Part shown: piece by piece, positions 2,727-37,528 of the stretch
Layout: every line of letters starts with the position of its first letter
Position numbering within the stretch: position 1 is the stretch's first letter
Virus record (IMG/VR): IMGVR_UViG_3300045988_187455
Location: 1 to 37,829 of that record
Reading direction: 5' to 3' (one strand)
DNA length: 37,829 nucleotides
DNA from: a virus
Translations under genes and position numbers: made by a program
The notes under the pieces: model-generated
The model's database searches: none
What the model was told of the DNA's origin: nothing
What the model saw: the letters and a program-made list of their open reading frames with translations, nothing else

Positions 2727-2855
2727 ATACTAGACAAAAGAATTTTTGAAGCCTTAGGCGAACTACAAAAGAAAGGCTATGAGCTTTCAGAATTTCATCA
2801 AGGATATATCGCTTGTATCTTAGATGAATCGAAAAGAGGTGAGAATCATGACTAA
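2727..2855 (+). CDS. Small hypothetical protein (possible ATA start)
   Basis: Open frame from ATGATG 2700 (no SD); GGAGGTG 2715-2721 then ATA 2727; stop overlaps next start (ATGACTAA). Confidence 0.3.
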   Translation: MLDKRIFEALGELQKKGYELSEFHQGYIACILDESKRGENHD

Positions 2856-3027
2856 AACATATTTCGTAACCTTCGATGTGACTGCAAATGTCACATTCGA
2901 GGTTGAAGCACATGACAGTGTAGAAGCAAAAGAAATTGCTAATCACTTGGATGTTAGAGATTTGCAGGAAGTAAATAAAATCAACACTTGTGAATCTAGA
3001 ATGGAGGTGTATGAAAGTGATTATTGA
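2848..3027 (+). CDS. Hypothetical acidic protein (59 aa)
   Basis: ATG 2848 after AAGAGGTGA; the track start at 2824 lacks an SD. Confidence 0.6.
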   Translation: MTKTYFVTFDVTANVTFEVEAHDSVEAKEIANHLDVRDLQEVNKINTCESRMEVYESDY

Positions 3028-3268
3028 GTATAAAGCGTTGCTTAATAAGGATGATTTGGTGAAATTATTTGGAATGGATGAAATGTCAAAAGGAGGACAA
3101 AGAAACAAGGCAAGTAAAATCATGAAGTCGGTTAAAGAGCAATACAAAAAAGACAACGGGATTGATTGGAAAGATACATTTATTTATAAGAATGTATCAC
3201 AAAATGTAATTCCAACAGAGACATTTTTAAAGTGTTGCCCTGAGTTTAGGAAATCATTTAGGAGATAA
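3011..3268 (+). CDS. Hypothetical protein
   Basis: GGAGGTG followed by ATG 3011 and GTG 3017 (either could be the start); overlaps previous gene. Confidence 0.6.
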   Translation: MKVIIEYKALLNKDDLVKLFGMDEMSKGGQRNKASKIMKSVKEQYKKDNGIDWKDTFIYKNVSQNVIPTETFLKCCPEFRKSFRR

Positions 3269-3272
3269 AGAC

Positions 3273-3503
3273 ATGCAAGATATAAGAATGAATGCAATAC
3301 ATGAGGATGAAATGGAGTTGAGCATTTATCCATTTGATTCAAAACGAATACATTTAAGCAAAGAAGAAAAAGAACTTATTAGAGAACAAAGGTATCAAAA
3401 AAGAATCACAAATTGCGTAAATGTAATTCTAATTACAACAATCGTGATTCTACTTATTTCAATAGCTTGTTTAGGTAAGTCGTATGCAATGTTATTTCTA
3501 TAA
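3273..3503 (+). CDS. Hypothetical protein with C-terminal TM helix
   Basis: ATG after AGGAGA; C-terminal VNVILITTIVILLISIACL hydrophobic segment. Confidence 0.65.
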   Translation: MQDIRMNAIHEDEMELSIYPFDSKRIHLSKEEKELIREQRYQKRITNCVNVILITTIVILLISIACLGKSYAMLFL

Positions 3504-3550
3504 AAAAGAGGTGCGCACCCGACAAAAAGTACGCACACACAAGAAATGAC

Positions 3551-3567
3551 GTTCTTAAATTAAGAAC
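3551..3567. promoter_or_regulatory. 17-bp perfect palindrome upstream of the small HTH gene (operator or hairpin)
   Basis: GTTCTTAA-A-TTAAGAAC; an 8-bp palindrome GTGCGCAC lies at 3511-3518. Confidence 0.35.
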
Positions 3568-3604
3568 ACATACATTATAGCAGATAAAGGAGGAAAACGG
3601 AAGA

Positions 3605-3778
3605 ATGAAAAAGAATAATGATATTAGAGAATTAGCTAAAAAAAATGGAGTGTATTTGTATGAAATTGCAATGGAGTTGAATGTTTCAGAATCTACTTTC
3701 ATTAAAAGTTTAAGAAAAGAACTTACAGACGAAAAGAAAGAAGAAATAAAGCAAATAATCAATCAATTATCAGAATAA
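3605..3778 (+). CDS. Small HTH DNA-binding protein (57 aa; Cro/regulator-like)
   Basis: ATG after AAAGGAGGA; IRELAKKNGVYLYEIAMELNVSESTFIKSL reads as helix-turn-helix; missed by track (<60 aa); the opposite-strand ORF 3454-3762 is a shadow. Confidence 0.6.
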   Translation: MKKNNDIRELAKKNGVYLYEIAMELNVSESTFIKSLRKELTDEKKEEIKQIINQLSE

Positions 3779-3795
3779 AAAAGGAGAAATAGAAG

Positions 3796-4458
3796 ATGGA
3801 AGAAAAGAAAAGCATTTATGAGAAACTTTCATTAATTCAGAATGAAATGAAAGTCGGAAAAAATAATTACAACAAATTCGGGAAATATAACTATCGTTCT
3901 GCCGAAGATATTCTTGCAGAAGCTAAAAAGATTTGTTGCAAGTATAGAACAACTTTAATTCTTACAGATGATATTAAAGTTGCAGAAGCTAGATATTACG
4001 TTGTAGCAAATGCAATATTAATGGATTGGGATTCTCATATAACGGTAGAGGTTACCGCAATGGCTAGAGAAGAAGAAAATAAAAAAGGTATGGACGCTTC
4101 ACAAGTTACAGGTTCATGCAGTTCATATGCTAGAAAGTATGCGTTAAACGGTTTATTTAACTTAGATGATACAAAAGACGCAGATACAGATGAACAACAT
4201 GAAGCAATTCAAAATGCACAAACAAAACAACAGAAAGCCGAAAAAAATGACAAGTTAGATGAAATTCGTATGCGTTGCTTTAAAGCACAAAATGAATTAC
4301 AGAAGCTAGGAATTGATACACATTCAGAAGCGTTTTGTGAGCATTTAAAAGCAGAATATAAAATCAGTTCACAAGATATTCCTAATCTAAATGGAAACGG
4401 TCTAGTGGCATTAATTAAAGCATACGGAGCTATTTACAAAGAAAATGCGAAAGCATAA
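3796..4458 (+). CDS. erf: Erf-family single-strand annealing protein
   Basis: N-terminal KFGKYNYRSAEDIL and central SSYARKYALNGLFNLDDTKDAD motifs typical of the ERF family. Confidence 0.75.
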   Translation: MEEKKSIYEKLSLIQNEMKVGKNNYNKFGKYNYRSAEDILAEAKKICCKYRTTLILTDDIKVAEARYYVVANAILMDWDSHITVEVTAMAREEENKKGMDASQVTGSCSSYARKYALNGLFNLDDTKDADTDEQHEAIQNAQTKQQKAEKNDKLDEIRMRCFKAQNELQKLGIDTHSEAFCEHLKAEYKISSQDIPNLNGNGLVALIKAYGAIYKENAKA

Positions 4459-4471
4459 GGATGAAAGAAAA

Positions 4472-4777
4472 ATGGAATTAGTAAACGTAACAAATGGACA
4501 AATTGAAATTCAACAGGAAGCATTAAGTAAATTGAAATCATTTCAAGAATACAAAAAGGAAATGGACAAATTAGAAAAAGATATTAAGAAAAATATCTTA
4601 GAAGCTATGGAAAAGAACGGTATCAAATCATTTGAAAATGATGTTGTAAAAATTGCATATGTAGAACCATACACAAGAACAACTATTGATACAAAATTAG
4701 TAAATGAATTAGGTCTTATGCACCAATTAGCAAAGGAAACACAAGTTAAATCTAGTGTTAAGGTAACTTGGAAATAA
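4472..4777 (+). CDS. Hypothetical protein
   Basis: ATG 4472 inside track ORF 4445-4777; coding-like composition. Confidence 0.6.
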   Translation: MELVNVTNGQIEIQQEALSKLKSFQEYKKEMDKLEKDIKKNILEAMEKNGIKSFENDVVKIAYVEPYTRTTIDTKLVNELGLMHQLAKETQVKSSVKVTWK

Positions 4778-5064
4778 AACGAGATAAGTCAATCTTACAA
4801 AAAGATATGTCTAAATGCTATGTATGTGGTTCAACATTGAATTTACACACGCATGAAATTTATTTCGGTACTGCTAACCGAAATAAATCAATTGAGCATG
4901 GTTGCTATGTACGTTTATGTGCTAGACATCACAACATGAGCAATGAAGGAGTACATTTCAATCACAAATTAGACATGAAGCTAAAGAAGGAATGCCAACA
5001 GGCATTTGAAGAAGTAAACACAAGAAATGAATTTATGAATATATTTCATAAGAATTATTTATAG
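4774..5064 (+). CDS. Cys/His-rich putative zinc-binding protein
   Basis: CYVCGS..HTHEIYFG..LCARHH pattern; start uncertain: ATA 4774 overlapping upstream stop (ATAA), TTG 4768 or ATG 4807 (no SD). Confidence 0.55.
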   Translation: MKRDKSILQKDMSKCYVCGSTLNLHTHEIYFGTANRNKSIEHGCYVRLCARHHNMSNEGVHFNHKLDMKLKKECQQAFEEVNTRNEFMNIFHKNYL

Positions 5065-5304: not shown

Positions 5305-5852
5305 AAACGAAGTTGATAGGTAACTTCATCCGAAAATCAAGAAATGAAGATGGAAACCTAGAAATAACATTTGAATTAACTGAGCCAATATACGAATCAT
5401 ACGCTCAGACACTCGAAAAAGGGGCATATAGCGTGATTATAGATTCTGTTAAACATTTACGTACGAATAATCAGAATCGGCTTATGTGGGCATTAATCAA
5501 GGAAATAAGTGAAAACGAAAACGCAAGCTACAACGATACATGGGATATGTATTGCGAGTTTTTGAGAATGGCAAAAGCTTTATATACATATGTTTCAGTT
5601 TTGAAAGATGGTGTTGATTCGTTGGCTCAAGCTCATGGAGTTAGAGCGGTGCAAATATTGGGTACTGAGGTTAGAGACAATGGAAACGAATTTGTAAATT
5701 GCAGATTGTTTCTAGGTAGCTCACAAATGGATACAAAGCAAATGGGAGTGTTAATTGATTGCATATTAGATTATGCCGAACAACTAGGAATCAGTACTCA
5801 ATATTATTTAGACAAAGGAATCAAGGTGGAAGAAAATAAAATTTGTAATTAA
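5301..5852 (+). CDS. NinB/Orf-like recombination protein (tentative)
   Basis: TTG start after GGAGC; RTNNQNRLMWALIKEIS segment resembles the NinB family; call from memory only. Confidence 0.5.
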   Translation: MKTKLIGNFIRKSRNEDGNLEITFELTEPIYESYAQTLEKGAYSVIIDSVKHLRTNNQNRLMWALIKEISENENASYNDTWDMYCEFLRMAKALYTYVSVLKDGVDSLAQAHGVRAVQILGTEVRDNGNEFVNCRLFLGSSQMDTKQMGVLIDCILDYAEQLGISTQYYLDKGIKVEENKICN

Positions 5853-6204
5853 AGGAAAACTAGATGGATTGAATGAATATATTAATGCTTGCAGAACAAA
5901 TCGTTACAAAGGAGCAGAAATGAAGAAAAAGAATGAGCGATTAGTTATGGCTTATATCTTACAGGCAGTAAACTTTGGCGAGGTTTACGAAGTTAAAAAA
6001 TACCCAATTAAATTAAATATTAATTGGTATGAACCTAATTCAAGGCGTGATGTTGATAACGTAACATTTGCAACTAAATTCATTCAAGATTCATTAGTTA
6101 GAACAGGAATTTTAGAAGATGATTCAAGGAAATACATTAATCAAGTGAATCATTCAGTATTTACGGATAAACAAAATCCTAGGATAGAGGTAGAAATCAT
6201 ATGA
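5836..6204 (+). CDS. rusA: RusA-like Holliday junction resolvase (ATA start)
   Basis: SRRDVDNVTFATKFIQDSLVRTGILEDDS catalytic-Asp region; conserved N-terminus KFVIKGKLDGLNEY lies upstream of the first canonical start (TTG 5869); AAGGTGGA + 5 nt + ATA 5836. Confidence 0.7.
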   Translation: MKFVIKGKLDGLNEYINACRTNRYKGAEMKKKNERLVMAYILQAVNFGEVYEVKKYPIKLNINWYEPNSRRDVDNVTFATKFIQDSLVRTGILEDDSRKYINQVNHSVFTDKQNPRIEVEII

Positions 6205-6560
6205 GAGAGCAAGAAATGGCATTAAATGTAGCAAAGCAAATTTATTTTGATGAGTTTAATTCATTTTACTTAATTGCAGAAACTGAAGAAGATACAAATG
6301 CAATTGGCGTGTATGAAGAAATGTGTACTTGTTATGACATTACAGAGGAATTTATGTATAGATTAAATGAGTGTAATAGATACACAAAAGAAGGATTAAA
6401 CAAAGAAAGAATAATTGCAATATATAAAGCGTTGCGCAAAATTGACGGATATTTTAGTGATAAAAGAATCAAATGCTATATCGAATACACGGACAAAATC
6501 ATTGATGAAATTCTAAAACAAGTCGTAGTGCTTGGAGGTGAGCAAAATAGCAGTAATTAG
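6201..6560 (+). CDS. Hypothetical protein
   Basis: ATGA overlap with rusA stop. Confidence 0.7.
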   Translation: MREQEMALNVAKQIYFDEFNSFYLIAETEEDTNAIGVYEEMCTCYDITEEFMYRLNECNRYTKEGLNKERIIAIYKALRKIDGYFSDKRIKCYIEYTDKIIDEILKQVVVLGGEQNSSN

Positions 6561-7287
6561 AATTATTAAGAACAAAAACTATACAGTGATGAGCAATACA
6601 CATTTAAAAGATAAGCGCTTATCACTAAAAGCAATAGGCTTGTTAAGTATTGTTCTTGGTTTACCGGAAGATTGGCATTATACAGTAAATGGATTAGTTG
6701 GAATTGTAAAAGATGGGAAAGATTCAGTTGAAAGTGCAATTAAGGAATTAAAAAAGAATGGATATTTAAGAGTAGAGAAGATATATCCTAATGAAAATAG
6801 TAATAGGATTCAATATCAATATACATTCTTTGAGAATCCTCAAGAGGTGGATTTTCAACCCCTTGAAAATCAAGGTATTGAAAAGCAAGGTGTTGAAACT
6901 CAAGTACTTGAAAACCCCTACACTTATAAAGATACTAATAAACCAAATACTAATAAATTAAATACTAATACACAAAGTAAACATAAATACGGTGAATATT
7001 CACACGTGTTACTTACAGATAAAGAACACACACACCTATTAGATTTATATGGTAACTCATTAGATGAGCATATAAAGATATTAGATGAGTATATTGAAAC
7101 GAGTGGAAAGAAATACAAGAACCATTCACTAGTGATTCAGAAGTGGGTACATGATGAATGGATGAAAAGAAATAAAGATAAGCCTATCACACTTGATTCA
7201 AAGTTTTATGCAGAGCAGAACACAAAGACGGATAAAGAGGTACAAGATGAATTTAATAGGCTTAGAGCACAACTATTTGGAGCATAG
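6547..7287 (+). CDS. DnaD-like replication organiser / winged-helix replication protein (ATA start)
   Basis: KNKNYTVMSNTHLKDKRLSLKAIGLLSIVLGLPEDWHYTVNGL N-terminal domain; TTG 6532 and GTG 6538 lie on or inside the SD GGAGGTG (6534-6540); ATA 6547 is 6 nt after it. Confidence 0.65.
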   Translation: MAVIRIIKNKNYTVMSNTHLKDKRLSLKAIGLLSIVLGLPEDWHYTVNGLVGIVKDGKDSVESAIKELKKNGYLRVEKIYPNENSNRIQYQYTFFENPQEVDFQPLENQGIEKQGVETQVLENPYTYKDTNKPNTNKLNTNTQSKHKYGEYSHVLLTDKEHTHLLDLYGNSLDEHIKILDEYIETSGKKYKNHSLVIQKWVHDEWMKRNKDKPITLDSKFYAEQNTKTDKEVQDEFNRLRAQLFGA

Positions 7288-11413: not shown

Positions 11414-11827
11414 ATGGAAATTAAAGAAGGAAGATTAGGATTGGTCGAAGGTAAAGCAGTAGCATTTGACTTTGATGGAGTAATTCACAAATATCGTGAA
11501 GGTTGGAAAGATGGAAGCATTTATGATGAAGCTAACAAAGATGTTATCGAGTTGATGTTGCTTCTAAAATTATCAGGTATTCCTATTGTGATTATTTCAA
11601 CACGTGAACCCCAACAAATTAAAGAGTGGTGGGATAAACAAGGATTTGTATTAGAAGCCAAAGTGTTAGGTAAGAAAAAAATGTTTCACAAAACTTGTGA
11701 TTATGTAGGTATCACGAATCGTAAAATTCCTGCTCAATTATATATTGATGATAGAGCTTATAAATATGAAGGTCAGACCGCAAAACAAGTTATTAAAGAC
11801 TTGACTGTTTTCACAGAATTAAATTAG
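11414..11827 (+). CDS. HAD-superfamily phosphatase-like protein
   Basis: DxDGV motif (VAFDFDGVIH), IVIISTR, YIDDRA. Confidence 0.55.
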   Translation: MEIKEGRLGLVEGKAVAFDFDGVIHKYREGWKDGSIYDEANKDVIELMLLLKLSGIPIVIISTREPQQIKEWWDKQGFVLEAKVLGKKKMFHKTCDYVGITNRKIPAQLYIDDRAYKYEGQTAKQVIKDLTVFTELN

Positions 11828-13962: not shown

Positions 13963-13980
13963 GAGGTGGCACTAATAGAA

Positions 13981-14169
13981 ATGAATTATGAAGAAAGGAT
14001 TAAAGAGTTAATTTCTAAGAATGACAGATTAGGAATGGCGAACATTGAGCTTAGTCAGACTTTAAAAGAAAGAAATGCAACAATTCATAATCAAACACAC
14101 GAGATTAATAGGCTAAAAAATAAAGTTGGCGAATTAGAAAATAGATTAATGAGGATGTATACGTCATGA
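13981..14169 (+). CDS. Coiled-coil hypothetical protein
   Basis: ATG 13981; alternatively ATA 13975, which sits 6 nt after GGAGGTG (ambiguous). Confidence 0.55.
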   Translation: MNYEERIKELISKNDRLGMANIELSQTLKERNATIHNQTHEINRLKNKVGELENRLMRMYTS

Positions 14170-14492
14170 GTACATATGAAGAAGTTAAAAAACATTTTCT
14201 ATGCGAATGTCAATCTTATACATACTATGAGCAAAAGATAGCAGAGCTACAAAGGGATGAAGCAATTTATCCATTAAAAGCCGAGCTATTCTTGGCTCAT
14301 GCAGATTATGCAAGAAGAATGAATTATGTAAAAGACAAATTAAGCCAACTTGATGATACGACTCGAGCCATGATTGAGTATAGATATATAAAGGGATTCA
14401 GTGCAGAAAAGACATCTAATATTGTAGGTTATGCACGAGAAGAGATTCCAAGAAAAATAAATAAGAACTTGAAGAAAGTGCTCACAATGTGA
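14166..14492 (+). CDS. Late-gene transcriptional regulator (sigma-70 region 4 / ArpU-RinA-like)
   Basis: C-terminal LDDTTRAMIEYRYIKGFSAEKTSNIVGYAREEIPRKINKNLKK HTH; position just upstream of the packaging genes. Confidence 0.6.
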   Translation: MSTYEEVKKHFLCECQSYTYYEQKIAELQRDEAIYPLKAELFLAHADYARRMNYVKDKLSQLDDTTRAMIEYRYIKGFSAEKTSNIVGYAREEIPRKINKNLKKVLTM

Positions 14493-14501
14493 GCATTTTT
14501 T
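14480..14501 (+). terminator. Rho-independent terminator ending the early/middle operon
   Basis: GCTCAC-AAT-GTGAGC hairpin followed by ATTTTTT. Confidence 0.6.
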
Positions 14502-14503
14502 CA

Positions 14504-14512
14504 TGTAATAAT
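14504..14512 (+). promoter_or_regulatory. Extended -10 promoter element (TGtAATAAT) for the tRNA-like gene
   Basis: TGnAATAAT ends 6 nt before position 14519, the predicted mature 5' end. Confidence 0.4.
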
Positions 14513-14518: not shown

Positions 14519-14594
14519 AGCAGGATAGAGCAGTAGTAGCTCACTAGTCTTATTAGCTAGAGGTCGAACGGTGCAATTCCTTCTCCTGCAACCA
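14519..14594 (+). tRNA. tRNA-like gene, anticodon UAU (reads AUA), initiator-like features, encoded CCA
   Basis: Manual cloverleaf: AGCAGGA/TCCTGCA acceptor with A1xA72 mismatch, GAGC-AGTAGTA-GCTC D arm, CTAGT-CTTATTA-GCTAG anticodon arm, AGGTC variable loop, GAA(C)GG-TGCAATT-CCTTC T arm with one bulge, A73, CCA. Confidence 0.55.
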
Positions 14595-14676: not shown

Positions 14677-14701
14677 ACCGAGCATTTGTCTCGGTTCTTT
14701 T
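14677..14701 (+). terminator. Rho-independent terminator after the tRNA-like unit
   Basis: ACCGAG-CATTTGT-CTCGGT followed by TCTTTT. Confidence 0.6.
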
Positions 14702-14728
14702 AATAATAAGGAGGAGAATGAGGAATAA

Positions 14729-15244: not shown

Positions 15245-16006
15245 TTGAAAATATTTCTAAGCGCATTAGAGGTGCAACGAGGTAAGAAATCATTATGTAG
15301 AATCTTAGTCGAGCAAGGCATTCAAATGAAATATAACCTTATGTCTTATTACTACCTAAGAAAGAATTTAAATGACGCATATTTCATAAAAGAGAACAGT
15401 CAATTAGTAATTATAGACAGTGGAGCACATAGTTTCCAAAAGGGTACAAAAGTTGATTGGGTAGAATATACCAAGCAATACGCAGAATTTATCAAAGAAT
15501 TTGATGAGGACAAGGTTGTAGGATATTTTGAAATGGATGTAGACAACATCTTAGGTTATGAAAAGGTATTAGAGTTAAGAAAAATATTAGAATCTGTATC
15601 AGATAAGATTATTCCTGTATGGCATAAGAATAGAGGAATACAAGACTTCAAAGATATGTGTAAGAAATATCAAGGTAAGGTTGTAGCAATTACAGGATTC
15701 AAGAATGAAGATATTAAAGATGAACAATACATTATGTTTTTGAAATATGCAAAGAAATATAATTGCAAGGTTCATTGCCTTGGTATGACAAGAAAAAAGA
15801 TATTAGATAAAGTTCCATTTGATTATTGTGATTCTAGTTCATGGGTACAACAATCAGTTTATGGGCGTATCAATGGGGTGGGCAAAGTATCAAGAGAAAT
15901 GTCAAGGACAAATAGAGAACAAGTAATGATAGAGAATTATAAGCAATTTATGCAAATGCAAGAAAAATATGAACAAAAATGGAGGAACGTGAATAAACAG
16001 AAATAA
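15245..16006 (+). CDS. TGT-superfamily DpdA-like 7-deazaguanine DNA transglycosylase (tentative)
   Basis: IIDSGAHSF, KVHCLGMT, FDYCDSSSW motifs recalled as DpdA/TGT-like; TTG start directly after a stop with no SD; see start anomaly finding. Confidence 0.5.
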   Translation: MKIFLSALEVQRGKKSLCRILVEQGIQMKYNLMSYYYLRKNLNDAYFIKENSQLVIIDSGAHSFQKGTKVDWVEYTKQYAEFIKEFDEDKVVGYFEMDVDNILGYEKVLELRKILESVSDKIIPVWHKNRGIQDFKDMCKKYQGKVVAITGFKNEDIKDEQYIMFLKYAKKYNCKVHCLGMTRKKILDKVPFDYCDSSSWVQQSVYGRINGVGKVSREMSRTNREQVMIENYKQFMQMQEKYEQKWRNVNKQK

Positions 16007-16448
16007 GACGATAGCTTTTAATGCAGTAATGTGTGCATTGTATGTTGTAGCAACGACAATTAACCCAATCGGATATGGAGTATTTCAATTTAGAGTTAGT
16101 GAATTAATGACAGTGTTTCCTGTTCATTTCAAAAAAGCACGTATCGGATTGCTTTTAGGAGTAGCAATAGCAAATGCAATGAGTCCGCTAGGCTTTATAG
16201 ATGTATTTTGTGGAACATTAACGGCAGGACTATTGTATTACCTAATTGATAGACTACCGGTACACAATTACATCAAATACATTCTATATTCATTAGAAGT
16301 AGGATTAATTATCGGTTGGGAATTACAGTTGGTATATCATATGCCATTTGTATTAACATTCTTTACTACATTTATTCCGGAAATGATTCTATGTATTATC
16401 GGTGATTTATTAGCAAAGAAATTAAAGCATTATGTAAGTATTGATTAG
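15993..16448 (+). CDS. queT: QueT-family queuosine-precursor transporter (ATA start)
   Basis: IAFNAVMCALYVVATT..GVFQFRVSELMTVFP plus further TM helices; first ATG (16029) would truncate TM1; GGAGGA + 6 nt + ATA 15993. Confidence 0.65.
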   Translation: MNRNKTIAFNAVMCALYVVATTINPIGYGVFQFRVSELMTVFPVHFKKARIGLLLGVAIANAMSPLGFIDVFCGTLTAGLLYYLIDRLPVHNYIKYILYSLEVGLIIGWELQLVYHMPFVLTFFTTFIPEMILCIIGDLLAKKLKHYVSID

Positions 16449-25181: not shown

Positions 25182-26051
25182 ATACCAAATGAAATTGCAT
25201 TAGCTAAAACGTATGTCTCAAATTTGGATGAGGTATATAAGTTAGCTTCAGTTACAGGTGATTTAAATGCAGACGCTACAATGGTACGAGCAGGAGCAAA
25301 CGCAAAAGAAATCATCTATCCACAAATTTCTGTTAAAGGTTTAGGAAACTACGATAGAAACAGTGGTTATACAGGTAACTCAGTTAAGTTAGAATGGAAA
25401 ACTGCTACATTCGACTATGATAGAGGAACTAAAATCTCAGTTGATACACAAGATAACGCAGAATCAATGAATATTGCATTCGGTATGGCAGGAGCAGAAT
25501 TAATGCGTACAAAGGTAGCACCGGAAGCGGACGCTTACACATTCGCTAAAATTGCAGGTACAACAGGAATCACAAAGGTTTCAGAAGATTATACAGGTGC
25601 AGAAGAGTTCTTGAGCGCATTGTTAACGGCTATCACTAAAATGGATGAGGATGAAGTTCCTAGCGAACAACGTATCTTGTATTCAACACCTACATTATTA
25701 AATAGCGTTAAAGCATTAGATACATACAAATCACGTGAAGCTTTACAAGGATTCGCAAAAGTTGTTCCTGTACCTGCTAGTCGCTTCTATACAAAAATCA
25801 AATTGTTGAGTGGAAAAGATACAGAGTTAGAGGGCGGATACGAAAAGGCAGAAGATGGACACGTAATCAACTTCTTGATTGTTCATAAACCTGCCGTTAT
25901 GAAATGGGATAAACACACCGTTTCAAATGTAATTCCTGCAAGCAATAACATTGAATCAGATTCAGATGTATTGAAATATCGTAAGTATGGAATTGTTGAT
26001 GTATACCAAAATAAGGTAGCAGGTATTTACTTATCTGCTAGTGCTAAGTAA
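25182..26051 (+). CDS. Major capsid protein (ATA start)
   Basis: AAGGAGGA + 9 nt + ATA 25182 directly after in-frame TAA-TTA; PNEIALAKTYVSNLDEVYKLAS N-terminus lies upstream of TTG 25224. Confidence 0.8.
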   Translation: MPNEIALAKTYVSNLDEVYKLASVTGDLNADATMVRAGANAKEIIYPQISVKGLGNYDRNSGYTGNSVKLEWKTATFDYDRGTKISVDTQDNAESMNIAFGMAGAELMRTKVAPEADAYTFAKIAGTTGITKVSEDYTGAEEFLSALLTAITKMDEDEVPSEQRILYSTPTLLNSVKALDTYKSREALQGFAKVVPVPASRFYTKIKLLSGKDTELEGGYEKAEDGHVINFLIVHKPAVMKWDKHTVSNVIPASNNIESDSDVLKYRKYGIVDVYQNKVAGIYLSASAK

Positions 26052-26523: not shown

Positions 26524-26939
26524 TAGGATTTTTTGAAGATTCAATCACACTTGTAAATCACTACTATGACACATTGACAAGAGAAGATAGATTTCAAGCT
26601 TCTATACTTGATAAATGTATGTGGAGACAATCTACTATTAGAACTGCAAACGGTAATATTCTGAGCATAGCCACATCCACAAATATTACCATTCTATATC
26701 GTGAGGGATATGTTGAACCTTACGCATATGCAAAGCTTTCAAATGATGAGAAACAAAAGCACTTCACATTAAACACGGATAAAACAGATTTCGTATTCTT
26801 TGGAGAAGTGAAAGAAGATTTATCCACAATTAAAGCAATAAACGAAGCTAAAAAGAAATACAAATGGACAACAATTCAAAGCGTAACAGATTGTACGAAT
26901 GTCGACATGTTAAAACATTGGGAGGTTGTCGGTCAATAG
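26520..26939 (+). CDS. Head closure / head-tail adaptor protein
   Basis: ATGA overlap, ATG 26520. Confidence 0.55.
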   Translation: MIGFFEDSITLVNHYYDTLTREDRFQASILDKCMWRQSTIRTANGNILSIATSTNITILYREGYVEPYAYAKLSNDEKQKHFTLNTDKTDFVFFGEVKEDLSTIKAINEAKKKYKWTTIQSVTDCTNVDMLKHWEVVGQ

Positions 26940-27298
26940 GAATAAAAGTTAAACTTGATGTTGAATCAATTCCCCAAATTAAACAATCAAGAGGACTTCA
27001 AGAACGTGGACGAGTTCAACAAATGATTGACTCCGAAGTCATTAGACTTATGACCCCTTATACGCCTAGAGACACAGGAGCATTAATTAACTCGGCTACA
27101 AGAAATACTCAAATCGGAAGTGGATTAGTAAAGCAAGGTGGACCAAGTGCCCCTTATGCTAGACGGTGGTATTACAACAAAGAGGGTGCTCATTTCGTAG
27201 GAGGTAAAACAGACCATTGGTTTGAAAAAGCTATGCGAAATGGTGGAGCAGAGACAATCTTAAAGAAAGCACAACAAATGATAGGAGACGGAGAATGA
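26936..27298 (+). CDS. HK97 gp10-like tail attachment protein (ATA start)
   Basis: GGAGG + 10 nt + ATA 26936 overlapping upstream stop (ATAG); track N-terminus from 26864 overlaps the previous gene by 76 nt. Confidence 0.6.
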   Translation: MGIKVKLDVESIPQIKQSRGLQERGRVQQMIDSEVIRLMTPYTPRDTGALINSATRNTQIGSGLVKQGGPSAPYARRWYYNKEGAHFVGGKTDHWFEKAMRNGGAETILKKAQQMIGDGE

Positions 27299-27714
27299 CA
27301 GTATCAAAAGCATTGATTCAATGGCTATATGGCTATGGAAATATACAGATAGATGAACGTATTGAAACGGATGTTTTAGCGCAACAAGCTATCTCTTATG
27401 CGTTGTATAAAGAACCTAACGCAATTGTAAATACATACATTGACGGCTCTCAAATGCGTACTGAATACTACACGTTTCTAGCACGTAGGAACACACAAAT
27501 TGAAGCCGAAAGGCAAGATAACAATGTTTTTCTAGAAGAATTAGAAAATTGGATTGATGAAAAGAATTTAAGCGGAGAATTGCCACAACTAGACGGAAAC
27601 AGATATTGCGAGGATGTTTCCGTTTCAAGTGGTTTATATCTATATACAAATGAGGATAGTCAAGCAGTATATGCCTTGACAATTCAAATTAAATACAGAA
27701 AGGAGCTTAATTAA
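27295..27714 (+). CDS. Tail completion protein
   Basis: ATGA overlap; synteny. Confidence 0.55.
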   Translation: MTVSKALIQWLYGYGNIQIDERIETDVLAQQAISYALYKEPNAIVNTYIDGSQMRTEYYTFLARRNTQIEAERQDNNVFLEELENWIDEKNLSGELPQLDGNRYCEDVSVSSGLYLYTNEDSQAVYALTIQIKYRKELN

Positions 27715-28220
27715 TAACAACTACAGGGACTGAAGTAAGTACAGGACAAACAGTCAAGAAGTATATGATTGGATTGTTCTTGCAAATGGGAGAAAGTTAT
27801 AAGCGAATTAAGAAATCTACAACTTTAGATATTTCATTTAACAGTGAAACTGAAACGTATGATTTTATCGCAGATAAGAACCCAACAGAATCATTAAAGA
27901 GTTATTCACCTCAAATCTCACAGGATTTGACTATGATTAAAGGCGAAGATGACTTTGAATACATTTACGAACAAATGATGAAATCCGTACCAAACAACGA
28001 AGAAGTAAATACAAAAGCTTTACTTGTATTTATGTTTGACGGAGACAAAACTAAAGGCTATAAAGCGTGGGAAGTTGACGCTAAATTAATCTTCGACACA
28101 TTGAGTGGCGTTGATTCAAAAATCAACTTCAATATTAACTTTGCAAGTGACATTCGTGTCGGTACTGCAAAGGTAGCAGATGGAGCAGTGACATTCACAG
28201 AAGGTACATCAGAAGTATAA
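27714..28220 (+). CDS. Major tail protein (probable ATA start)
   Basis: AAAGGAG + 8 nt + ATA 27714 (TAATA overlap with upstream stop); ATG 27765 has no SD. Confidence 0.7.
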   Translation: MTTTGTEVSTGQTVKKYMIGLFLQMGESYKRIKKSTTLDISFNSETETYDFIADKNPTESLKSYSPQISQDLTMIKGEDDFEYIYEQMMKSVPNNEEVNTKALLVFMFDGDKTKGYKAWEVDAKLIFDTLSGVDSKINFNINFASDIRVGTAKVADGAVTFTEGTSEV

Positions 28221-29181: not shown

Positions 29182-31761
29182 ATATCAGACGGAACATTAA
29201 AGTTTGATACAAAGATTGATACAAGTGGTCTAGAGAATGGAATAAAATCTGTTCATGAAGTCACAAGTGGAGCTACAAATGCTATCAAAGAAACTTCAAA
29301 AGCAATCGACAAGCTAGGTTCTGATGGTTCAAAAGCACCACCAAAGATTAAAGATAAACTTAAAGATTTAAACGAAGAGCAAAAGAATACACAAACAGAA
29401 ACGCAAGAAACAGGTTCTAAATTTGATGTATTTAAACAAGTAGGAAACAGTGCCTTAGAATCAATTCAAGGTGGGTTTGATGGACTATTAGGAAAGATTC
29501 AGAATATTAGTCCGGAAGCTACTGCAATCACTGAAACTTTAACAGGATTAGGCGTAGGAGGTGTCGTTGGTGTTACTGCCGTAGCAGGAGCTATCGGTGG
29601 TATGGCATTAGCGATTAAAACAGGTGTTAACCAAGCTACAGAACTAGATGACGCTATGGCTAAATTTCAAGCTCAGACAGGTGCTTCAAGCAATGAAATG
29701 AGCAAATTTAAAAACATTGCTCGTGATGTTTGGTCAAATAATTTCGGTGAAGATGTTTCAGATGTTGCCGATATGATGGGCAGAGTCAAGCAACAAATGC
29801 AAGGCATAAGTGATGTTGACCTAAAGAACGTGACCGAGGATTTATTAACTTTAAGAGATACATTCGATATGGATGAGAATGAAACTCTTAGAGGTGCTCA
29901 ACAATTAATGAAGCAGTTCGGAATCACTTCTCAAGAAGCTTTCGACCTTATGGCTACAGGTGCTCAGAATGGTTTAAACAAATCAGATGAGTTAGGCGAC
30001 AACATTTCAGAATACTCCGGTAAATTCGCACAAGCAGGATATTCGGCAGATGAATATTTCCAATTAATGCAGAATGGATTAGATGGTGGAGCTTATAACC
30101 TTGATAAAGTTAATGACGCAATCAACGAAGTTACCACAAGGTTAGTTGATGGAACTATTGAAGGAGCTTTAGATAGTTTTGATACCAAAACACAAGATGT
30201 ATTTAAGGCATGGCAAGAAGGAAGAGCAACTCAAAAAGATGTTGTGAATGCGATTGTAGAAGATATTTCAAAGACTACAAATGAACAAGAAAAGTTGAAT
30301 AAATCTGCAACGGCTTTCGGTACAATGGGAGAAGATTTCAACGCCGGATTCATTCAGTCCTTAACGACAGTAGGGAATAAATATAAAGACGTAGAAGGGG
30401 CAATGGATAAAGTCAAAGATATTGCAAATGGTGGCTTAAAGAACGCTTTAAGTGGATTAGGGCGTGCATTTCTTGATTCATTTACTCCAATAGGCGAACT
30501 TATTACCCCTATTCTTGCAGGTATCATCGGATTAATTACAGTAGCTATACAAGGTATTCAACAAGGATTTGCTAAAGTTGGTGATGTAATTTCAAGTGTA
30601 TTAAGTAAGATTGATACAAGTGGAATTACAAAATTGACAAGTCAAGTTTCCGAAGTGCTAGCACCTTCCTTTGATAAAGTAAAAGACGCAATCGACAAAA
30701 TGAAAGTTGCGCTTGAACCTATTGCAAAAGATATATTAAGCAAGATTATTGATGTAATTCAAAACATTGTGAATCAAGCTCAAAAGATTCTAACTGTAGT
30801 AGGACCACCGATACTTTCTGTTTTAAAGAAAATCATTTCAACGGTTTCGGAATTTATGCCTTTAATCACATCTATATTGACTATTGTCGGAAGTGTTGTA
30901 AGTGGAGTTATTTCATTTATAAATATGGTAGTCACATATACCGGAACGGCAATCGCAACGGCAATGGGATTTATCATGCCTATAGTTCAAATCATTTCTG
31001 CAATCGTAGCAAATATTTGGTCTATTATCTTAACAGTAGCAACAAATATTTGGAGTAAGATTAGCGAAGTAATTACTGCGATTATTGGGTTTGTAAGCAA
31101 TTTATTTAAGACGGTTTCGGACATCATAAACAATATTTGGAGTAAGATTCAAGATACAATGAACAGAGTCAGAGACAAGGTAAAAGGTATCATTGATAAT
31201 ATCAATAAAAATTTCAATAATATCAAGTCTACAGTTTCAGATGTATTTAATGGCATTTGGTCAAAGGTTCAAGGTGTAATGGATAAGGTAGGAAATAAAA
31301 TCTCAAATGTTTTACAAGGAATACAGAATTCATGGAATGGTTTAAAAGGTTTTGTAAGTGGTGTATTCGGTGGAATTGAAGGAGCAGTTAGTTCATTAGT
31401 TGGAAGTGTAAAAGGAATGGTAAATGGTGTTATCGGTGGCATTAACGGTGCAATCGGTATCATCAATAAGATTCCAGGTGTACATATCGGAAGAATTCCT
31501 AGACTAGAACGTGGTGGTGTATTGAAACGTGGTCAAATTGGTTTGTTGGAAGGTAATGGAGCAGAAGCCGTTGTACCTTTAGAAAGAAATAAAGCATGGA
31601 TTCGTGCCGTAGCAAAAGACATGGTACAAATCATGCCAAGCGTAACGACAAATAACAACGGACAGACTATCAACTTCTACAATAAAGCGCAAAGTCCGGA
31701 TGAAATCGCTAGAATGTTGCGAATGCAAGCAAGATATGGATATGGAGGTGTAGTTCAATAG
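29182..31761 (+). CDS. Tape measure protein (ATA start)
   Basis: 140 codons of open, TMP-like sequence (SDGTLKFDTKIDTSGLENGIKS...) precede the first canonical start ATG 29602; GGAGGTGG + 8 nt + ATA 29182 directly after in-frame TGA. Confidence 0.85.
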   Translation: MSDGTLKFDTKIDTSGLENGIKSVHEVTSGATNAIKETSKAIDKLGSDGSKAPPKIKDKLKDLNEEQKNTQTETQETGSKFDVFKQVGNSALESIQGGFDGLLGKIQNISPEATAITETLTGLGVGGVVGVTAVAGAIGGMALAIKTGVNQATELDDAMAKFQAQTGASSNEMSKFKNIARDVWSNNFGEDVSDVADMMGRVKQQMQGISDVDLKNVTEDLLTLRDTFDMDENETLRGAQQLMKQFGITSQEAFDLMATGAQNGLNKSDELGDNISEYSGKFAQAGYSADEYFQLMQNGLDGGAYNLDKVNDAINEVTTRLVDGTIEGALDSFDTKTQDVFKAWQEGRATQKDVVNAIVEDISKTTNEQEKLNKSATAFGTMGEDFNAGFIQSLTTVGNKYKDVEGAMDKVKDIANGGLKNALSGLGRAFLDSFTPIGELITPILAGIIGLITVAIQGIQQGFAKVGDVISSVLSKIDTSGITKLTSQVSEVLAPSFDKVKDAIDKMKVALEPIAKDILSKIIDVIQNIVNQAQKILTVVGPPILSVLKKIISTVSEFMPLITSILTIVGSVVSGVISFINMVVTYTGTAIATAMGFIMPIVQIISAIVANIWSIILTVATNIWSKISEVITAIIGFVSNLFKTVSDIINNIWSKIQDTMNRVRDKVKGIIDNINKNFNNIKSTVSDVFNGIWSKVQGVMDKVGNKISNVLQGIQNSWNGLKGFVSGVFGGIEGAVSSLVGSVKGMVNGVIGGINGAIGIINKIPGVHIGRIPRLERGGVLKRGQIGLLEGNGAEAVVPLERNKAWIRAVAKDMVQIMPSVTTNNNGQTINFYNKAQSPDEIARMLRMQARYGYGGVVQ

Positions 31762-32630
31762 ACATTAACAAAGTAAGAGTTATCGTCCGTAGGGATGATG
31801 GCAAAGAGTTTGAAATTGACAACCAAAAAAGATGGAAGATTCCTTCTAGTAGTGGTTTAGATGGATTTGATTATGTAGCACCTTCATATACAACACAAGA
31901 CAATGCATTCGGAAACGGTGCAAGATTAATCGGTTCACGTATTCCAACGAAAGAAAGAAGCGTGAAAGCTACCTTTAAAGGTTCGCTAGAAGAAAAAAGA
32001 GAAGAAAGGGAGAAGCTACGGCGCTTCTTCCAATATTCTCATATATTTGACGTTATTGTTGAGTACATGGGAGAAAAGAAATATTGCAGAGGAAGGTTAT
32101 ATGCGTATAGCTTGCCTACTGCTAACATCTACAAAGATTTAGAGCTTAACTTTACAATCCTATGCACACAACCTTTATTGCTTTCATTTGATGATTTCGC
32201 AAGGAATATTGCAGAAATCGGTGAAGGTTTAGCGTTCAACTTTGAAATACCGGAAACAGGCGTGAACTTTGGAACATTCACATTCGCTAGAGAAATCTAT
32301 ATTGATAATCAAGGTGATACAGAAACATACTGTAGAGCCGTTATTGAAGCATTTGGAGAGGTAACAAATCCAAAGCTATTTAACAAGGATAAATATATTC
32401 GTGTATTAGATACGCTACACAATGGTGATGTATTAGAAATTGATTTAGTTTCTGAGCCTATTTCGATTAAAAAGAATGGTGTGAATTGTATCGGCAAAGT
32501 TGATAGAACATCATCATTCAACGATATGACGATTCAGTTAGGTGAGAATATCATAGGATATACGGCAGACAGTGGAGATACGAACCTAGCTTGCATGGTT
32601 TACTATAATGAAAGGTATTTAGGTTTATAA
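31758..32630 (+). CDS. Distal tail protein Dit (ATA start)
   Basis: 68 codons open upstream of GTG 31962; GGAGGTG + 7 nt + ATA 31758 overlapping the TMP stop (ATAG). Confidence 0.75.
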   Translation: MDINKVRVIVRRDDGKEFEIDNQKRWKIPSSSGLDGFDYVAPSYTTQDNAFGNGARLIGSRIPTKERSVKATFKGSLEEKREEREKLRRFFQYSHIFDVIVEYMGEKKYCRGRLYAYSLPTANIYKDLELNFTILCTQPLLLSFDDFARNIAEIGEGLAFNFEIPETGVNFGTFTFAREIYIDNQGDTETYCRAVIEAFGEVTNPKLFNKDKYIRVLDTLHNGDVLEIDLVSEPISIKKNGVNCIGKVDRTSSFNDMTIQLGENIIGYTADSGDTNLACMVYYNERYLGL

Positions 32631-33657: not shown

Positions 33658-34158
33658 ATAGAAAAGAACAATGGAGGATTTAAACAAATAACGAGAAGTA
33701 TGTATTTTCTAGACAAGATGAATGCAATGGGTGGTGTAGCCGTTGCCGTATTAACATACGTATTAGGTGAGCATTGGTATTTATTTGCGTTCTTCTTATT
33801 TATGAATGTAGTTGATTACATTACAGGGTGCATGAAGTCGGCGATTAATCACAAAATCAATAGCAATAAAGGATGGATTGGAGTCCTTAAAAAGCTAGGC
33901 TATTGGATTATGATTGTCGTTGCGTTCACATTCAGTGCATTCTTGGTAGAGATTGGAAAAATGCTAGGAATTGATTTCCATGTAACTACATTATTAGGAT
34001 GGTTCGTATTGGCTTCTTTGTGCATTAATGAAGTGCGTAGCATTATTGAGAACCTTGTACAATGTGGATATAGCGTACCTAGTGTATTGACTAAAGGTTT
34101 GGAAGTAGCGGATAAAATCGTTAACGAAGACAATGACGAATCAAGTACCTTGGAATAA
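33658..34158 (+). CDS. Holin (multi-TM; probable ATA start)
   Basis: TM helices and DYITGCMKSAINHKINSNKGWIGVLKK motif; GTG 33649 overlaps the SD AAGGAG; ATA 33658 is 8 nt after the SD; a second GGAGG + 10 nt + ATA at 33688; ATG 33700 lacks an SD. Confidence 0.7.
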   Translation: MEKNNGGFKQITRSMYFLDKMNAMGGVAVAVLTYVLGEHWYLFAFFLFMNVVDYITGCMKSAINHKINSNKGWIGVLKKLGYWIMIVVAFTFSAFLVEIGKMLGIDFHVTTLLGWFVLASLCINEVRSIIENLVQCGYSVPSVLTKGLEVADKIVNEDNDESSTLE

Positions 34159-35769: not shown

Positions 35770-35804
35770 CTCGAAAGAGATTAGGCAATAGCCTTTGGAT
35801 TATA

Positions 35805-35834
35805 GGGTAGTCGAAAGGCTACCCATTTATTTTA
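35805..35834 (+). terminator. Rho-independent terminator inside the cassette
   Basis: GGGTAGTC-GAAA-GGCTACCC followed by a T-rich run. Confidence 0.6.
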
Positions 35835-35852
35835 TATAGGAGGAAAAGAAAA

Positions 35853-36272
35853 ATGATTAATAGTATAGCAACGGCAGTACAAACAGTAGCAAATGGACAA
35901 AATGTATTATTTCCAACGGATAGGGTAAGAACAAAATCATGTCAATGTGCTTGTAAAGGTTGGCTTGCTCATGATGTAGGAAGTGGACTATTTACATTGA
36001 CGAAACAAGGAATTTATGAAGTAGAATATACGGCAGACATCACAAGCGCAACGGTAGGAGTCGCTTCTTTAGAATTAGAACAGAATGGAGAAGCAGTAGG
36101 AGGAACAGAATCTCTATATAATGTAGCTACTGCAAGTGCATATGGAAATGTTAGTGGAGCTACATTGATTCAAGTACCTTGTGGAGCTTCTTACACAATT
36201 ACGCTAGGAAATAACAGTGGCTTAGATTTATCTGTTCAGAATGCAAATATCATCATTAAGAAATTAGCGTAG
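35853..36272 (+). CDS. BclA C-terminal-domain-like (C1q/TNF-like) protein without collagen region (cassette gene 4)
   Basis: GIYEVEYTADITSA..LELEQNGEAVGGT..ANIIIKKLA parallels the BclA CTD as recalled (GFYKITV..IQVNGVPVPGT..ASIIIEKVA). Confidence 0.5.
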   Translation: MINSIATAVQTVANGQNVLFPTDRVRTKSCQCACKGWLAHDVGSGLFTLTKQGIYEVEYTADITSATVGVASLELEQNGEAVGGTESLYNVATASAYGNVSGATLIQVPCGASYTITLGNNSGLDLSVQNANIIIKKLA

Positions 36273-36279
36273 GTGTATC

Positions 36280-36717
36280 ATGCAAGAGGTTAGAAAACGA
36301 AATCTAGACCTCTTAACGGAAGCAATGAGAGGACTAGAAAAAGGATACAATGATTTAGATTTTAGAGTTATGAGCCAAGCTTTAGACAACATCAAAGACA
36401 TTGATACAATACTAGCTATGAGTGATGGAAGAGCGACTATAAACACATTAAGAACAAATGACACAAATATTGAAGGAACAGAAATTGATGACAATATCGC
36501 ATTGATGAATAGCCATTTTAGGAAATACATAGAAGCGAAAAAAGAATATCGAAAAGATAACAATGAAATCGATAAGCGAAATTCTATTCGTGAGTTAGAA
36601 GCTTTTTTGAATGCTATGTATGGAATCTTAGAAGAAATGAAAACGTCTAGCGACTTTCAAGAAGAAAGAGAAATGGTCAGAGATAAATTAAGAGAAATGT
36701 TCTCAGTATATCAGTGA
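36280..36717 (+). CDS. Helical hypothetical protein (cassette gene 5)
   Basis: TAGGTG SD, ATG 36280. Confidence 0.6.
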   Translation: MQEVRKRNLDLLTEAMRGLEKGYNDLDFRVMSQALDNIKDIDTILAMSDGRATINTLRTNDTNIEGTEIDDNIALMNSHFRKYIEAKKEYRKDNNEIDKRNSIRELEAFLNAMYGILEEMKTSSDFQEEREMVRDKLREMFSVYQ

Positions 36718-36718
36718 T

Positions 36719-36731
36719 AAAAACCTCTTTT
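36719..36731 (+). repeat. 13-bp direct repeat, right copy (AAAAACCTCTTTT)
   Basis: Identical to 34407-34419 but without the 5' arm of the hairpin. Confidence 0.6.
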
Positions 36732-36734
36732 ATG

Positions 36735-36743
36735 TGCTATAAT
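36735..36743 (+). promoter_or_regulatory. Extended -10 element TGcTATAAT upstream of the endolysin
   Basis: Perfect TGnTATAAT match 27 nt before ATA 36770. Confidence 0.4.
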
Positions 36744-36769
36744 TGGTACATAAAGGAGGATTTTTTTTA

Positions 36770-37528
36770 ATAAATTATCAAAATTTCAAAAATGCCGTAT
36801 TAGGCAAAGCTTTCGATGTTGATGGCTTTTATGGTGCTCAGTGTTGGGACGGATTCGCAAAGTATATGATTGATTTAGGATATAGAGCAATTCATTGTAC
36901 TACGAGTCAATTTGCAAAAGACATTTGGAACAATCGAAAAGCAAATGGTATCTTAAACTACTGTAATGAAGTCACAGTTATGCAAGCCGGAGATATTGCA
37001 GTATTTAAAGAAGTAGCATTATGGACTCCATACTCACACGTGGCAATTTTTGACCACGACGCAGGCGGTGGATACGGTTGGTTCTTAGGACAGAATCAAG
37101 GCGGAAAGAATGGAGCGTTTACACTTTGTAAATTGCCATACAGTGCCACATTCGATACTGCATTTAGACCTAAATGTTTTGCAAATGCACAGACTGCTAA
37201 ACCTAAACCACAACCAAAAGAAGCGATTGACCAAATCTTACACGTAGGTAGCTATGTAACATCTGTACAGATGAAGATTGGAAATCAAGGATTAAAGAAG
37301 ATTAATAACGATACTTGCGCCTATTTATCACAGTTAGGTGGTTGGTTCCCATTGTCTATGATTACAAAAGTTCGAGGTTCGGATGGATATAATGACAATG
37401 TGTTGCATACTACAAATGCGGTGGTATACGTAGACCGAGTTCGTGTTGATGAAATTAATATTCCGAAAAACCTTGCAAAAATCGGTGGAATTTGGGTTAG
37501 TGCTACACCTTTGATTGAAGTAGCATAA
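36770..37528 (+). CDS. Endolysin: N-terminal CHAP domain plus C-terminal SH3b-like binding domain (ATA start)
   Basis: DVDGFYGAQCWDGF (catalytic Cys) and YSHVAIF (His); the track TTG 36743 lies upstream of the SD; AAAGGAGGA + 9 nt + ATA 36770 gives N-terminus NYQNFKNAVLGKAFDVDG. Confidence 0.8.
   Translation: MNYQNFKNAVLGKAFDVDGFYGAQCWDGFAKYMIDLGYRAIHCTTSQFAKDIWNNRKANGILNYCNEVTVMQAGDIAVFKEVALWTPYSHVAIFDHDAGGGYGWFLGQNQGGKNGAFTLCKLPYSATFDTAFRPKCFANAQTAKPKPQPKEAIDQILHVGSYVTSVQMKIGNQGLKKINNDTCAYLSQLGGWFPLSMITKVRGSDGYNDNVLHTTNAVVYVDRVRVDEINIPKNLAKIGGIWVSATPLIEVA

Follow-up and report, generated by a model that had tools for sequence, protein, structure and literature searches.

A phage-encoded, initiator-derived tRNA with anticodon UAU as the probable reader of private AUA start codons in a temperate siphophage

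Introduction

Stop codons are recoded by suppressor tRNAs in Lak, crAss-like and other gut phages, and in animal mitochondria AUA serves as a start codon through a single tRNAMet that carries 5-formylcytidine at position 34 (f5C34) and reads both AUG and AUA, in initiation as well as in elongation. Here, we describe a phage genome in which ATA occupies the start position of at least 14 genes and which encodes a tRNA, at 14519..14594 on the plus strand, whose anticodon UAU is the exact complement of AUA. The genome is the IMG/VR virus record IMGVR_UViG_3300045988_187455, positions 1 to 37,829, and this whole stretch of 37,829 nucleotides is referred to below as the window. From comparative sequence analysis we put at roughly 85% the probability that this tRNA is an initiator and that it decodes AUA as a start codon private to the phage.

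Several characterized tRNAs bear on this proposal. Laboratory-built initiators include the amber initiator tRNA(CUA), i-tRNA(AAC) and an amber-initiator design for phage biocontainment (bioRxiv 10.1101/524249, 10.1101/2021.05.25.445580, 10.1101/2024.07.29.605542). A suppressor tRNAIle(UAU) of Bacillus subtilis is an elongator (PMC3919564). For the Escherichia coli initiator, pairing of position 37 with mRNA base -1, and thus quadruplet pairing at the start site, has been shown experimentally (PMC10018350). A full-text literature search, which did not cover subscription-only papers, yielded no account of a phage that naturally encodes an initiator tRNA for a non-AUG codon, and a private start codon served by its own phage initiator tRNA appears to be new in kind.

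ATA codons at the start positions of phage genes

The preliminary description of this DNA proposed that at least 14 genes begin at ATA and listed three further, weaker candidates. When each site was re-read, all 17 coordinates carried ATA, and the Shine-Dalgarno (SD) strings and spacer lengths given there proved right. The 14 firm ATAs each lie 5-10 nt downstream of a strong SD and at the 5' edge of their frame, the open frames beginning 0-28 codons upstream of the ATA. For the portal, capsid, major tail, tape measure and QueT genes and the gene at 21860, the frame opens only 0-1 codon 5' of the ATA, so that no upstream canonical start is possible. Downstream, the first ATG, GTG or TTG is as far away as had been claimed, namely 140 codons for the tape measure protein and 68 for the distal tail protein (Dit), and the reported overlaps with upstream stop codons, in the form ATAG, ATAA or TAATA, are present at 19555, 26936, 31758, 4774 and 27714.

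These sites also stand out statistically. In an annotation-free scan for the codon that follows an SD and precedes a long open reading frame (ORF), ATA was second commonest, with 20 sites, after ATG with 32 and ahead of ATT with nine and ATC with four. The gene model contains 14 firm ATA starts, 43 ATG starts and about nine GTG or TTG starts, and ATA opens 14 of 68 phage genes, or about a fifth. Mean SD match is longer at ATA than at ATG starts (6.64 vs 5.05 nt, p=4e-4), the base at -1 is A at 14/14 ATA starts vs 21/44 ATG starts (p=2e-4), and 12 of the 14 firm ATA starts vs 18 of 44 ATG starts lie in the late half of the genome (p=0.004).

Further support came from relatives, comprising 38 IMG/VR contigs with portals 96-99% identical to that of the window and eight ENA/Logan contigs, integrated prophages included. 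Across these more than 45 assemblies the ATAs are kept and the sole substitute is ATG, found in 4/20 relatives at 20999, 29/31 at 21860 and 1/39 at 27714; the synonymous isoleucine codons ATT and ATC were found at none of the start positions in the assemblies compared. Within the segments between ATA and the first canonical start, variable sites fall 54/30/169 at codon positions 1/2/3, with 30/16/82 in the 140-codon segment of the tape measure gene and 2/1/18 in the Dit segment, and this concentration at the third position indicates that the extensions are translated in the ATA frame. PHROG and Pfam profile alignments begin nearly residue for residue at the ATA, the PHROG alignments setting in at profile position 1-5 and at residue 1-5 counted from it. 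The earlier claim that the ATAs stand where homologues have Met1 is likewise upheld, since portal homologues of 45-60% identity have their first residue no more than about 10 positions from the ATA, and the annotated TTG start of the portal would cut off conserved residues. Conservation, coding signal, family profiles and homologue N-termini agree, as far as sequence can tell, that these ATAs are start codons.

Because the true starts are ATA, public gene calls are truncated. For the portal, a cluster of 1406 member sequences at 436 amino acids (aa) and a 365-aa 'MAG TPA: portal protein' in GenBank correspond to 18248-19558 and 18461-19558, respectively, and database versions of the tape measure protein and Dit have 719 of 859 aa and 222 of 290 aa.

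The genes concerned, all on the plus strand, span most of the genome. Two are early, namely those of a RusA-like resolvase (5836..6204; ATA in 10/10 relatives covering the site) and a replication initiation/organiser protein (6547..7287; PHROG alignment of residues 2-98 to profile positions 2-99; ATA in 11/11 relatives). The QueT transporter gene (15993..16448) begins directly after an in-frame TGA, and residues 7-145 of its product match positions 1-140 of the Pfam QueT profile. Next come the portal gene (18155..19558), whose frame opens one codon upstream, and that of head protein phrog_1220 (19555..20364), whose ATA overlaps the portal stop as ATAG; both have ATA in 38/38 relatives. A virion-module protein, phrog_24103 (20999..21607), aligns over residues 4-200 with profile positions 4-195 of 197 and has ATA in 16 relatives and ATG in four, and a tail-fibre-like gene (21860..22771) has ATA in the window at a codon that, gene by gene, was counted as ATG in 29 relatives and ATA in one. 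The major head protein phrog_422 (25182..26051) matches profile positions 3-294 of 297 with residues 3-288 and keeps ATA in 41/41 relatives, as does a minor head/connector gene (26936..27298) in 39/39, its ATA overlapping the upstream stop as ATAG. The probable major tail gene (27714..28220) starts within a TAATA junction, with ATA in 38 relatives and ATG in one. Directly after a TGA follows the tape measure gene (29182..31761), which PHROG tape measure profiles match from residue 7 and which has ATA in 34/34 relatives; its stop is overlapped, as ATAG, by the ATA of Dit (31758..32630). The latter, the holin (Phage_holin_4_1; 33658..34158) and the CHAP endolysin (36770..37528; PHROG alignment of residues 2-82 to profile positions 5-90) each have ATA in 8/8 relatives.

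The three weaker candidates, likewise on the plus strand, remain ambiguous from the window alone, with one leaning toward ATA. At 4774..5064 a TTG lies two codons upstream, but the PHROG profile favours the ATA (phrog_7566, residues 4-96 to profile positions 4-96 of 96), which 7/7 relatives share. The ATA of the gene at 13975..14169 is preceded by AGGAGGTG with a spacer of 6 nt, has an ATG two codons downstream and is kept in 31/31 relatives; that at 2727..2855 would open a 42-codon ORF. An additional candidate ATA at 8160 is of the same ambiguous kind.

An initiator-derived tRNA with anticodon UAU

The tRNA-like gene reported for the region 14480-14701 is confirmed by a match to the Rfam tRNA model (48 bits at 14519-14591), and the minimum free energy fold gives a cloverleaf. 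ARAGORN found no tRNA in the window, a false negative attributable to degenerate D and T loops. The anticodon loop reads CUUAUUA, with U at position 37. Initiator features are evident elsewhere in the molecule, with an A1xA72 mismatch, G2:C71, C3:G70, A73, an encoded CCA, a D stem of GAGC/GCUC that contains A11:U24, and a 3' end, GCAACCA, identical to that of E. coli tRNAfMet (the reference sequence was verified).

Comparison of nine variants of this tRNA shows which features are held. Six stem pairs carry compensatory changes, and yet 1:72 is unpaired in 9/9 variants and the formylation determinants G2:C71, C3:G70 and A73 are, together with A11:U24, invariant in 9/9; the anticodon stem pairs A29:U41, G30:C40 and U31.G39 are also invariant. 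The well-formed tRNAs of relatives (loci L054, L136 and L138) agree with E. coli tRNAfMet at 57-59 of 77 positions, and one of these loci, L136, has the same acceptor stem as the window tRNA together with normal loops. When a well-formed UAU version was compared by BLAST with GenBank phage records, all matches were annotated tRNA-Met, at no more than 81% identity; none was annotated tRNA-Ile, and no cultured phage among those records has this tRNA. No close relative lacked the UAU tRNA where the fetched DNA covers its position. By its sequence features, the tRNA at 14519-14594 is a descendant of a bacterial initiator tRNA, though a derivative rather than a canonical member of that class.

The gene sits between two terminator-like hairpins, each followed by a T run and both on the plus strand. 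One (GTGCTCACAATGTGAGCA; 14478..14503) ends the early operon immediately upstream of the tRNA, and the other (14677..14702) separates the tRNA from the late operon, which opens with an SD and ATG at 14729. From the 3' end of the tRNA to this second terminator, 80 conserved nt (14595-14676) fold as a long hairpin (AAAGCCUA...UAGGCUUU). A palindrome, GCTCACA(A)TGTGAGC, occurs in near-identical copies at 14479-14495, 5' of the tRNA, and at 24490-24506, 5' of the scaffold and capsid genes, the latter position corresponding to the site of an initiator-like tRNA gene in distant relatives; the duplicated palindrome may be the site of a common regulator or a terminator.

Matched anticodons and start codons in related phages

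Co-occurrence of ATA starts with the tRNA-like gene, which the preliminary description had put forward as a check, is borne out among relatives. A second clade, with portal identity of 57-58%, also starts many genes at ATA, among them those of portal, capsid, tail and tape measure proteins, and in 7/7 loci it carries a better-formed UAU tRNA, which has G1xA72 and an identical anticodon loop and whose D and T loops are normal. More distant portal relatives (47-50% identity) have ATG starts and an initiator-like CAU tRNA inside the head module. We counted as orphan starts those ORFs that have an SD but no SD-preceded canonical start near the 5' end. At loci with a UAU tRNA these were 211 ATA, one ATT and one ATC; at loci with a CAU tRNA, four ATA, four ATT and eight ATC; and at the locus with a CGU tRNA, four ACG. 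The CAU tRNAs of loci L058-L094 lie some 3.7 kb 3' of the portal start, between minor-capsid and scaffold genes; their anticodon loops vary (AUCAUGU, UUCAUGC, UUCAUAC, CUCAUAA), they lack an encoded CCA, and in some the mismatch is at 2:71 and not at 1:72. An enrichment of ATC after SDs in some distant relatives was dismissed as noise, the inspected genes beginning at ATG.

Other anticodons are paired with other starts, and a few of the distant portal relatives combine the tRNA body of the CAU type with a different anticodon. Locus L094 encodes a CGU tRNA with a C1xU72 mismatch (7389-7464) and has SD-preceded ACG starts at 3582, 4970, 8134 and 10907, in the portal, head protein, major capsid and a tail gene. 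Locus L081 encodes a CCU tRNA, and its tape measure gene begins at AGG (11476-11482); loci L169, L196, L158 and L217 add to the CUU/AAG and CCU/AGG classes. AGG is the commonest orphan start at CCU loci and AAG at CUU loci, where two AAG starts, of a portal-sized and a capsid-sized gene, come immediately after a stop codon. Overall, the genes with ACG, AAG or AGG starts in CGU, CUU and CCU phages encode portal, capsid, terminase, tail and tape-measure proteins.

The wider extent of these classes was surveyed by two pattern scans of IMG/VR for tRNAs combining an initiator-type D arm with a non-CAU anticodon, the loci L144-L256 being those with a middle anticodon base other than A. They yielded further UAU tRNAs with C1xA72, C1xU72 or A1xC72, in phages of 31-62% G+C, and, among 1x72-mismatched classes, 58 CCU, three GUU, two CUU, two CCC and single CUA, GCU, GCA and CGC tRNAs. 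As a control, 40/40 tRNA-Asp genes caught by the D-arm pattern have a paired 1:72. For the GAU, CUA, CCC, GCU, GCA and CGC initiator-like tRNAs, matching starts were not shown in the short loci available. The UAU tRNAs of L129, L130, L133-L135, L139, L140 and L143 were set aside, having a fully paired acceptor stem and accompanying canonical gene starts; phages of the L129 type are about 59 kb in length with 49% G+C, and in their UAU tRNA the D arm is initiator-like and the anticodon stem has three G:C pairs. This molecule may be an initiator descendant that now serves as an elongator. Many of the 'tRNA-Arg(CCU)' annotations in phages may conceal initiators.

Position 37 of the tRNA and base -1 of the mRNA

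In every anticodon class, position 37 of the tRNA is complementary to mRNA base -1. For UAU tRNAs with U37, the base is A at 65 of 68 distinct sites (compared with 90/174 at ATG sites); for CGU with G37 it is C (4/4); for CUU with U37, A (5/5); for CCU with U37, A (8/9); for CCU with A37, U (2/2); and for GUU with C37, G at one conserved site. The odd but conserved U37 of the UAU tRNAs is explained by its complementarity to A at -1. Such covariation would be expected of tRNAs that decode these sites in the ribosomal P site, and it points to four-base recognition of the start.

The phage genome, its host and the question of host usage

The genome is of the temperate siphophage type, 37.8 kb in length with a G+C content of 31-36%. 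An integrase gene at 1-1125 is followed by divergent repressor-type genes and then by some 68 densely packed plus-strand genes, with replication and recombination functions first and packaging, head, tail and lysis functions after them. Directly 3' of the tRNA, positions 14729-16448 encode a ParB-like protein, a DpdA/queuine tRNA-ribosyltransferase-like protein (phrog_887) and the QueT transporter, and are probably a 7-deazaguanine DNA modification module; the DpdA-like gene has two candidate starts, TTG at 15245 or ATG at 15326. Megablast of 22.8 kb of the phage against GenBank phages gave no match, a portal search of GTDB genomes gave no relative, and an exact look-up of the integrase found no record.

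The same prophage was found inserted in a 99.5-kb bacterial scaffold. An EPSP synthase gene in its flank falls into a protein cluster that is very common in the gut; one of the cluster's members bears the name 'Solobacterium sp.' MAG, and the next named relatives belong to Floccifex, Holdemanella and Faecalicoccus. On these gene affinities the host is an uncultured member of the Erysipelotrichaceae.

These flanks offered a view of host start-codon usage, in which 20/20 genes begin at an SD-preceded ATG vs 14/68 phage genes at ATA (p=0.02). The anticodon-arm pattern of the phage tRNA had no match in 185,579 species genomes (one genome per species), and its 35 matches in IMG/VR are nearly all on contigs of the two UAU phage clades. 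Per 1000 codons, the phage has 13.4 internal ATA and the host flanks have 11.9; a codon-supplement role for the tRNA was therefore rejected, internal ATA not being raised over the host's.

Proposed mechanism and alternative explanations

The dedicated AUA-initiation mechanism advanced in the preliminary description is supported by the profile N-termini, the coding extensions, the ATA/ATG-only polymorphism, the initiator-derived UAU tRNA, host flank genes without ATA starts, and sister clades with CGU/ACG, CUU/AAG and CCU/AGG pairs. We propose that an ancestral initiator tRNA gene underwent an anticodon change from CAU to UAU and that, during the lytic cycle, the resulting tRNA would be placed in the P site at SD-positioned AUA codons, with U34-A35-U36 and U37 pairing against A(-1)-A-U-A of the mRNA. 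It would initiate at least 14 genes, encoding among others portal, head, major capsid, major tail, tape measure, Dit, holin, endolysin, QueT, RusA and replication organiser proteins, while host genes and the remaining phage genes would stay on AUG with the host initiator. Formylation and delivery by initiation factor 2 (IF2) would be expected because the acceptor-stem determinants are intact. The amino acid carried is probably isoleucine, judging by the anticodon; in classic E. coli work, anticodon-switched tRNAfMet species were reportedly charged according to the new anticodon and still initiated. Requiring both mRNA and tRNA, such a system would act as an AND gate that could stop leakage of capsid and lysis proteins in lysogens; alternatively or in addition, the phage might benefit from a private initiation channel independent of the host initiator tRNA. 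Gating of late genes by the tRNA is plausible and would fit both the late enrichment of ATA starts and the placement of the tRNA gene, which stands directly ahead of the late operon with a terminator-like hairpin on either side.

Some observations weigh against this proposal or its simplest form. In the window tRNA the canonical GG of the D loop and TTC of the T loop are gone, the loops reading AGUAGUA and UGCAAUU, the T stem is bulged, and of the three canonical initiator G:C pairs in the anticodon stem only G30:C40 is kept. Its overall identity hardly separates it from elongators, with 52/77 positions shared with initiator and 50/77 with elongator references, although the signature positions do separate it. 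A promoter scan around the tRNA gave no convincing promoter, the firm ATA starts of the early RusA and replication organiser genes carry ATA use beyond the structural and lysis genes of a simple late-gene gate, and the host sample comprises 20 genes, the host's own initiator tRNA not being among the retrieved sequence.

Among other explanations, an unlikely one is that the ATAs are real starts, weakly read by the host CAU initiator through a third-position mismatch, and that the phage tRNA is an elongator tRNA-Ile(UAU) for the rare AUA codon. AUA is a weak start codon in bacteria, ARAGORN labels the better-formed versions tRNA-Ile(tat), and the absence of the three G:C pairs from the anticodon stem would suit an elongator. 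It is difficult, however, to explain on those grounds why the 1x72 mismatch, A11:U24, G2:C71, C3:G70 and A73 are kept across divergent versions while other pairs covary, why position 37 is U and not the A, modified to N6-threonylcarbamoyladenosine (t6A), of AUA-reading elongators, or why internal ATA usage is not above that of the host. Nor would weak reading by the host initiator be expected where the most abundant virion proteins start at ATA, where position 37 covaries with base -1, or where ACG, AAG and AGG starts are paired with CGU, CUU and CCU tRNAs, which the host initiator could not plausibly read. That the host lineage itself routinely starts at ATA, with the phage following and its tRNA a copy of a host gene, is very unlikely. 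The small gene sample from an uncultured host leaves some room for this idea, but the uniform SD-preceded ATG starts of the flank genes and the confinement of the anticodon-arm pattern to phage contigs both speak against it.

The remaining two alternatives deny that the ATAs are starts at all. It is highly improbable that translation begins further downstream, at the ATG, GTG or TTG codons of the public annotation, and that the ATA-SD arrangement is non-functional. Gene callers did deliver the shortened 436-aa and 365-aa portals, but an SD is missing from most of those codons, truncation would remove conserved N-terminal residues, the extensions vary as coding sequence and the profiles begin at the ATA, and relatives carry ATG exactly at three of the ATA positions. 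Least credible, with next to no probability, is a sequencing or assembly artefact, or a DNA modification that makes ATG appear as ATA; the probable 7-deazaguanine module at 14729-16448, with its DpdA-like and QueT proteins, lends this idea its appeal. An artefact is effectively excluded because many independent assemblies agree: the same ATAs recur in more than 45 of them, from different studies and including prophages integrated in host scaffolds. In addition, 43 other genes keep ATG, a matching tRNA is present, and clades at 57% protein identity share the ATA starts.

Beyond the window, we consider it likely that reprogrammed initiator tRNAs form a widespread and hitherto unrecognised natural system in metagenomic phages (about 28-62% G+C), with four-base recognition, private phage-controlled initiation and a first residue other than methionine. 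The matched pairs would be UAU/AUA, CCU/AGG, CUU/AAG, CGU/ACG and possibly GUU/AAC, serving packaging, virion and lysis genes.

Implications

If the proposal holds, the phage tRNA would be the first naturally occurring initiator dedicated to a non-AUG start, a device so far confined to synthetic biology, and AUA would be a reassigned start codon that confers either a new layer of phage gene control or freedom from the host initiator tRNA. It would explain a systematic mis-annotation in abundant gut phages, whose portal, capsid, tape measure and lysin genes stand truncated in public databases. Phage 'tRNA-Ile(UAU)', 'tRNA-Arg(CCU)' and 'tRNA-Lys(CUU)' genes, now seen as codon-usage helpers, may in many cases be initiators. 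For engineering, these phages would supply evolution-tested orthogonal pairs of initiator and start codon, including the rule linking position 37 to base -1, and they would allow direct tests of what the three G:C pairs and quadruplet start-site pairing do in vivo.

Comparison with known systems

The phage tRNA shares with bacterial tRNAfMet the 1x72 mismatch, G2:C71, C3:G70, A73, A11:U24, G30:C40 and the 3' end GCAACCA. It differs in being phage-encoded, in having UAU and not CAU, U37 and not A37, and one of the three G:C pairs, and, in the window version, in its non-canonical D and T loops. With the elongator tRNAIle(UAU) it has in common an anticodon that pairs with AUA and probable charging by isoleucyl-tRNA synthetase; elongator tRNAIle, however, has a paired 1:72, Py11:Pu24 and A37 (t6A), none of which is found in the phage tRNA.

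At the level of the system, animal mitochondria likewise use AUA as a start codon, but the phage would run a normal AUG system and, separately from it, an initiator dedicated to AUA by its Watson-Crick UAU anticodon. Phage stop-codon recoding offers a closer functional parallel, in that a phage tRNA rereads one codon concentrated in late structural and lysis genes and the proposed role is the timing or protection of late-gene expression. Whereas stop recoding affects in-frame stops during elongation, the ATA system would act at the start codon, in initiation, leaving the elongation code unchanged and the reading frames ordinary. Finally, as in the engineered initiators, an anticodon swap would make genes with the matching start codon depend on that tRNA; those initiators are laboratory constructs of E. 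coli, while the phage system would be a natural one, conserved across clades and marked by compensation between position 37 and base -1.

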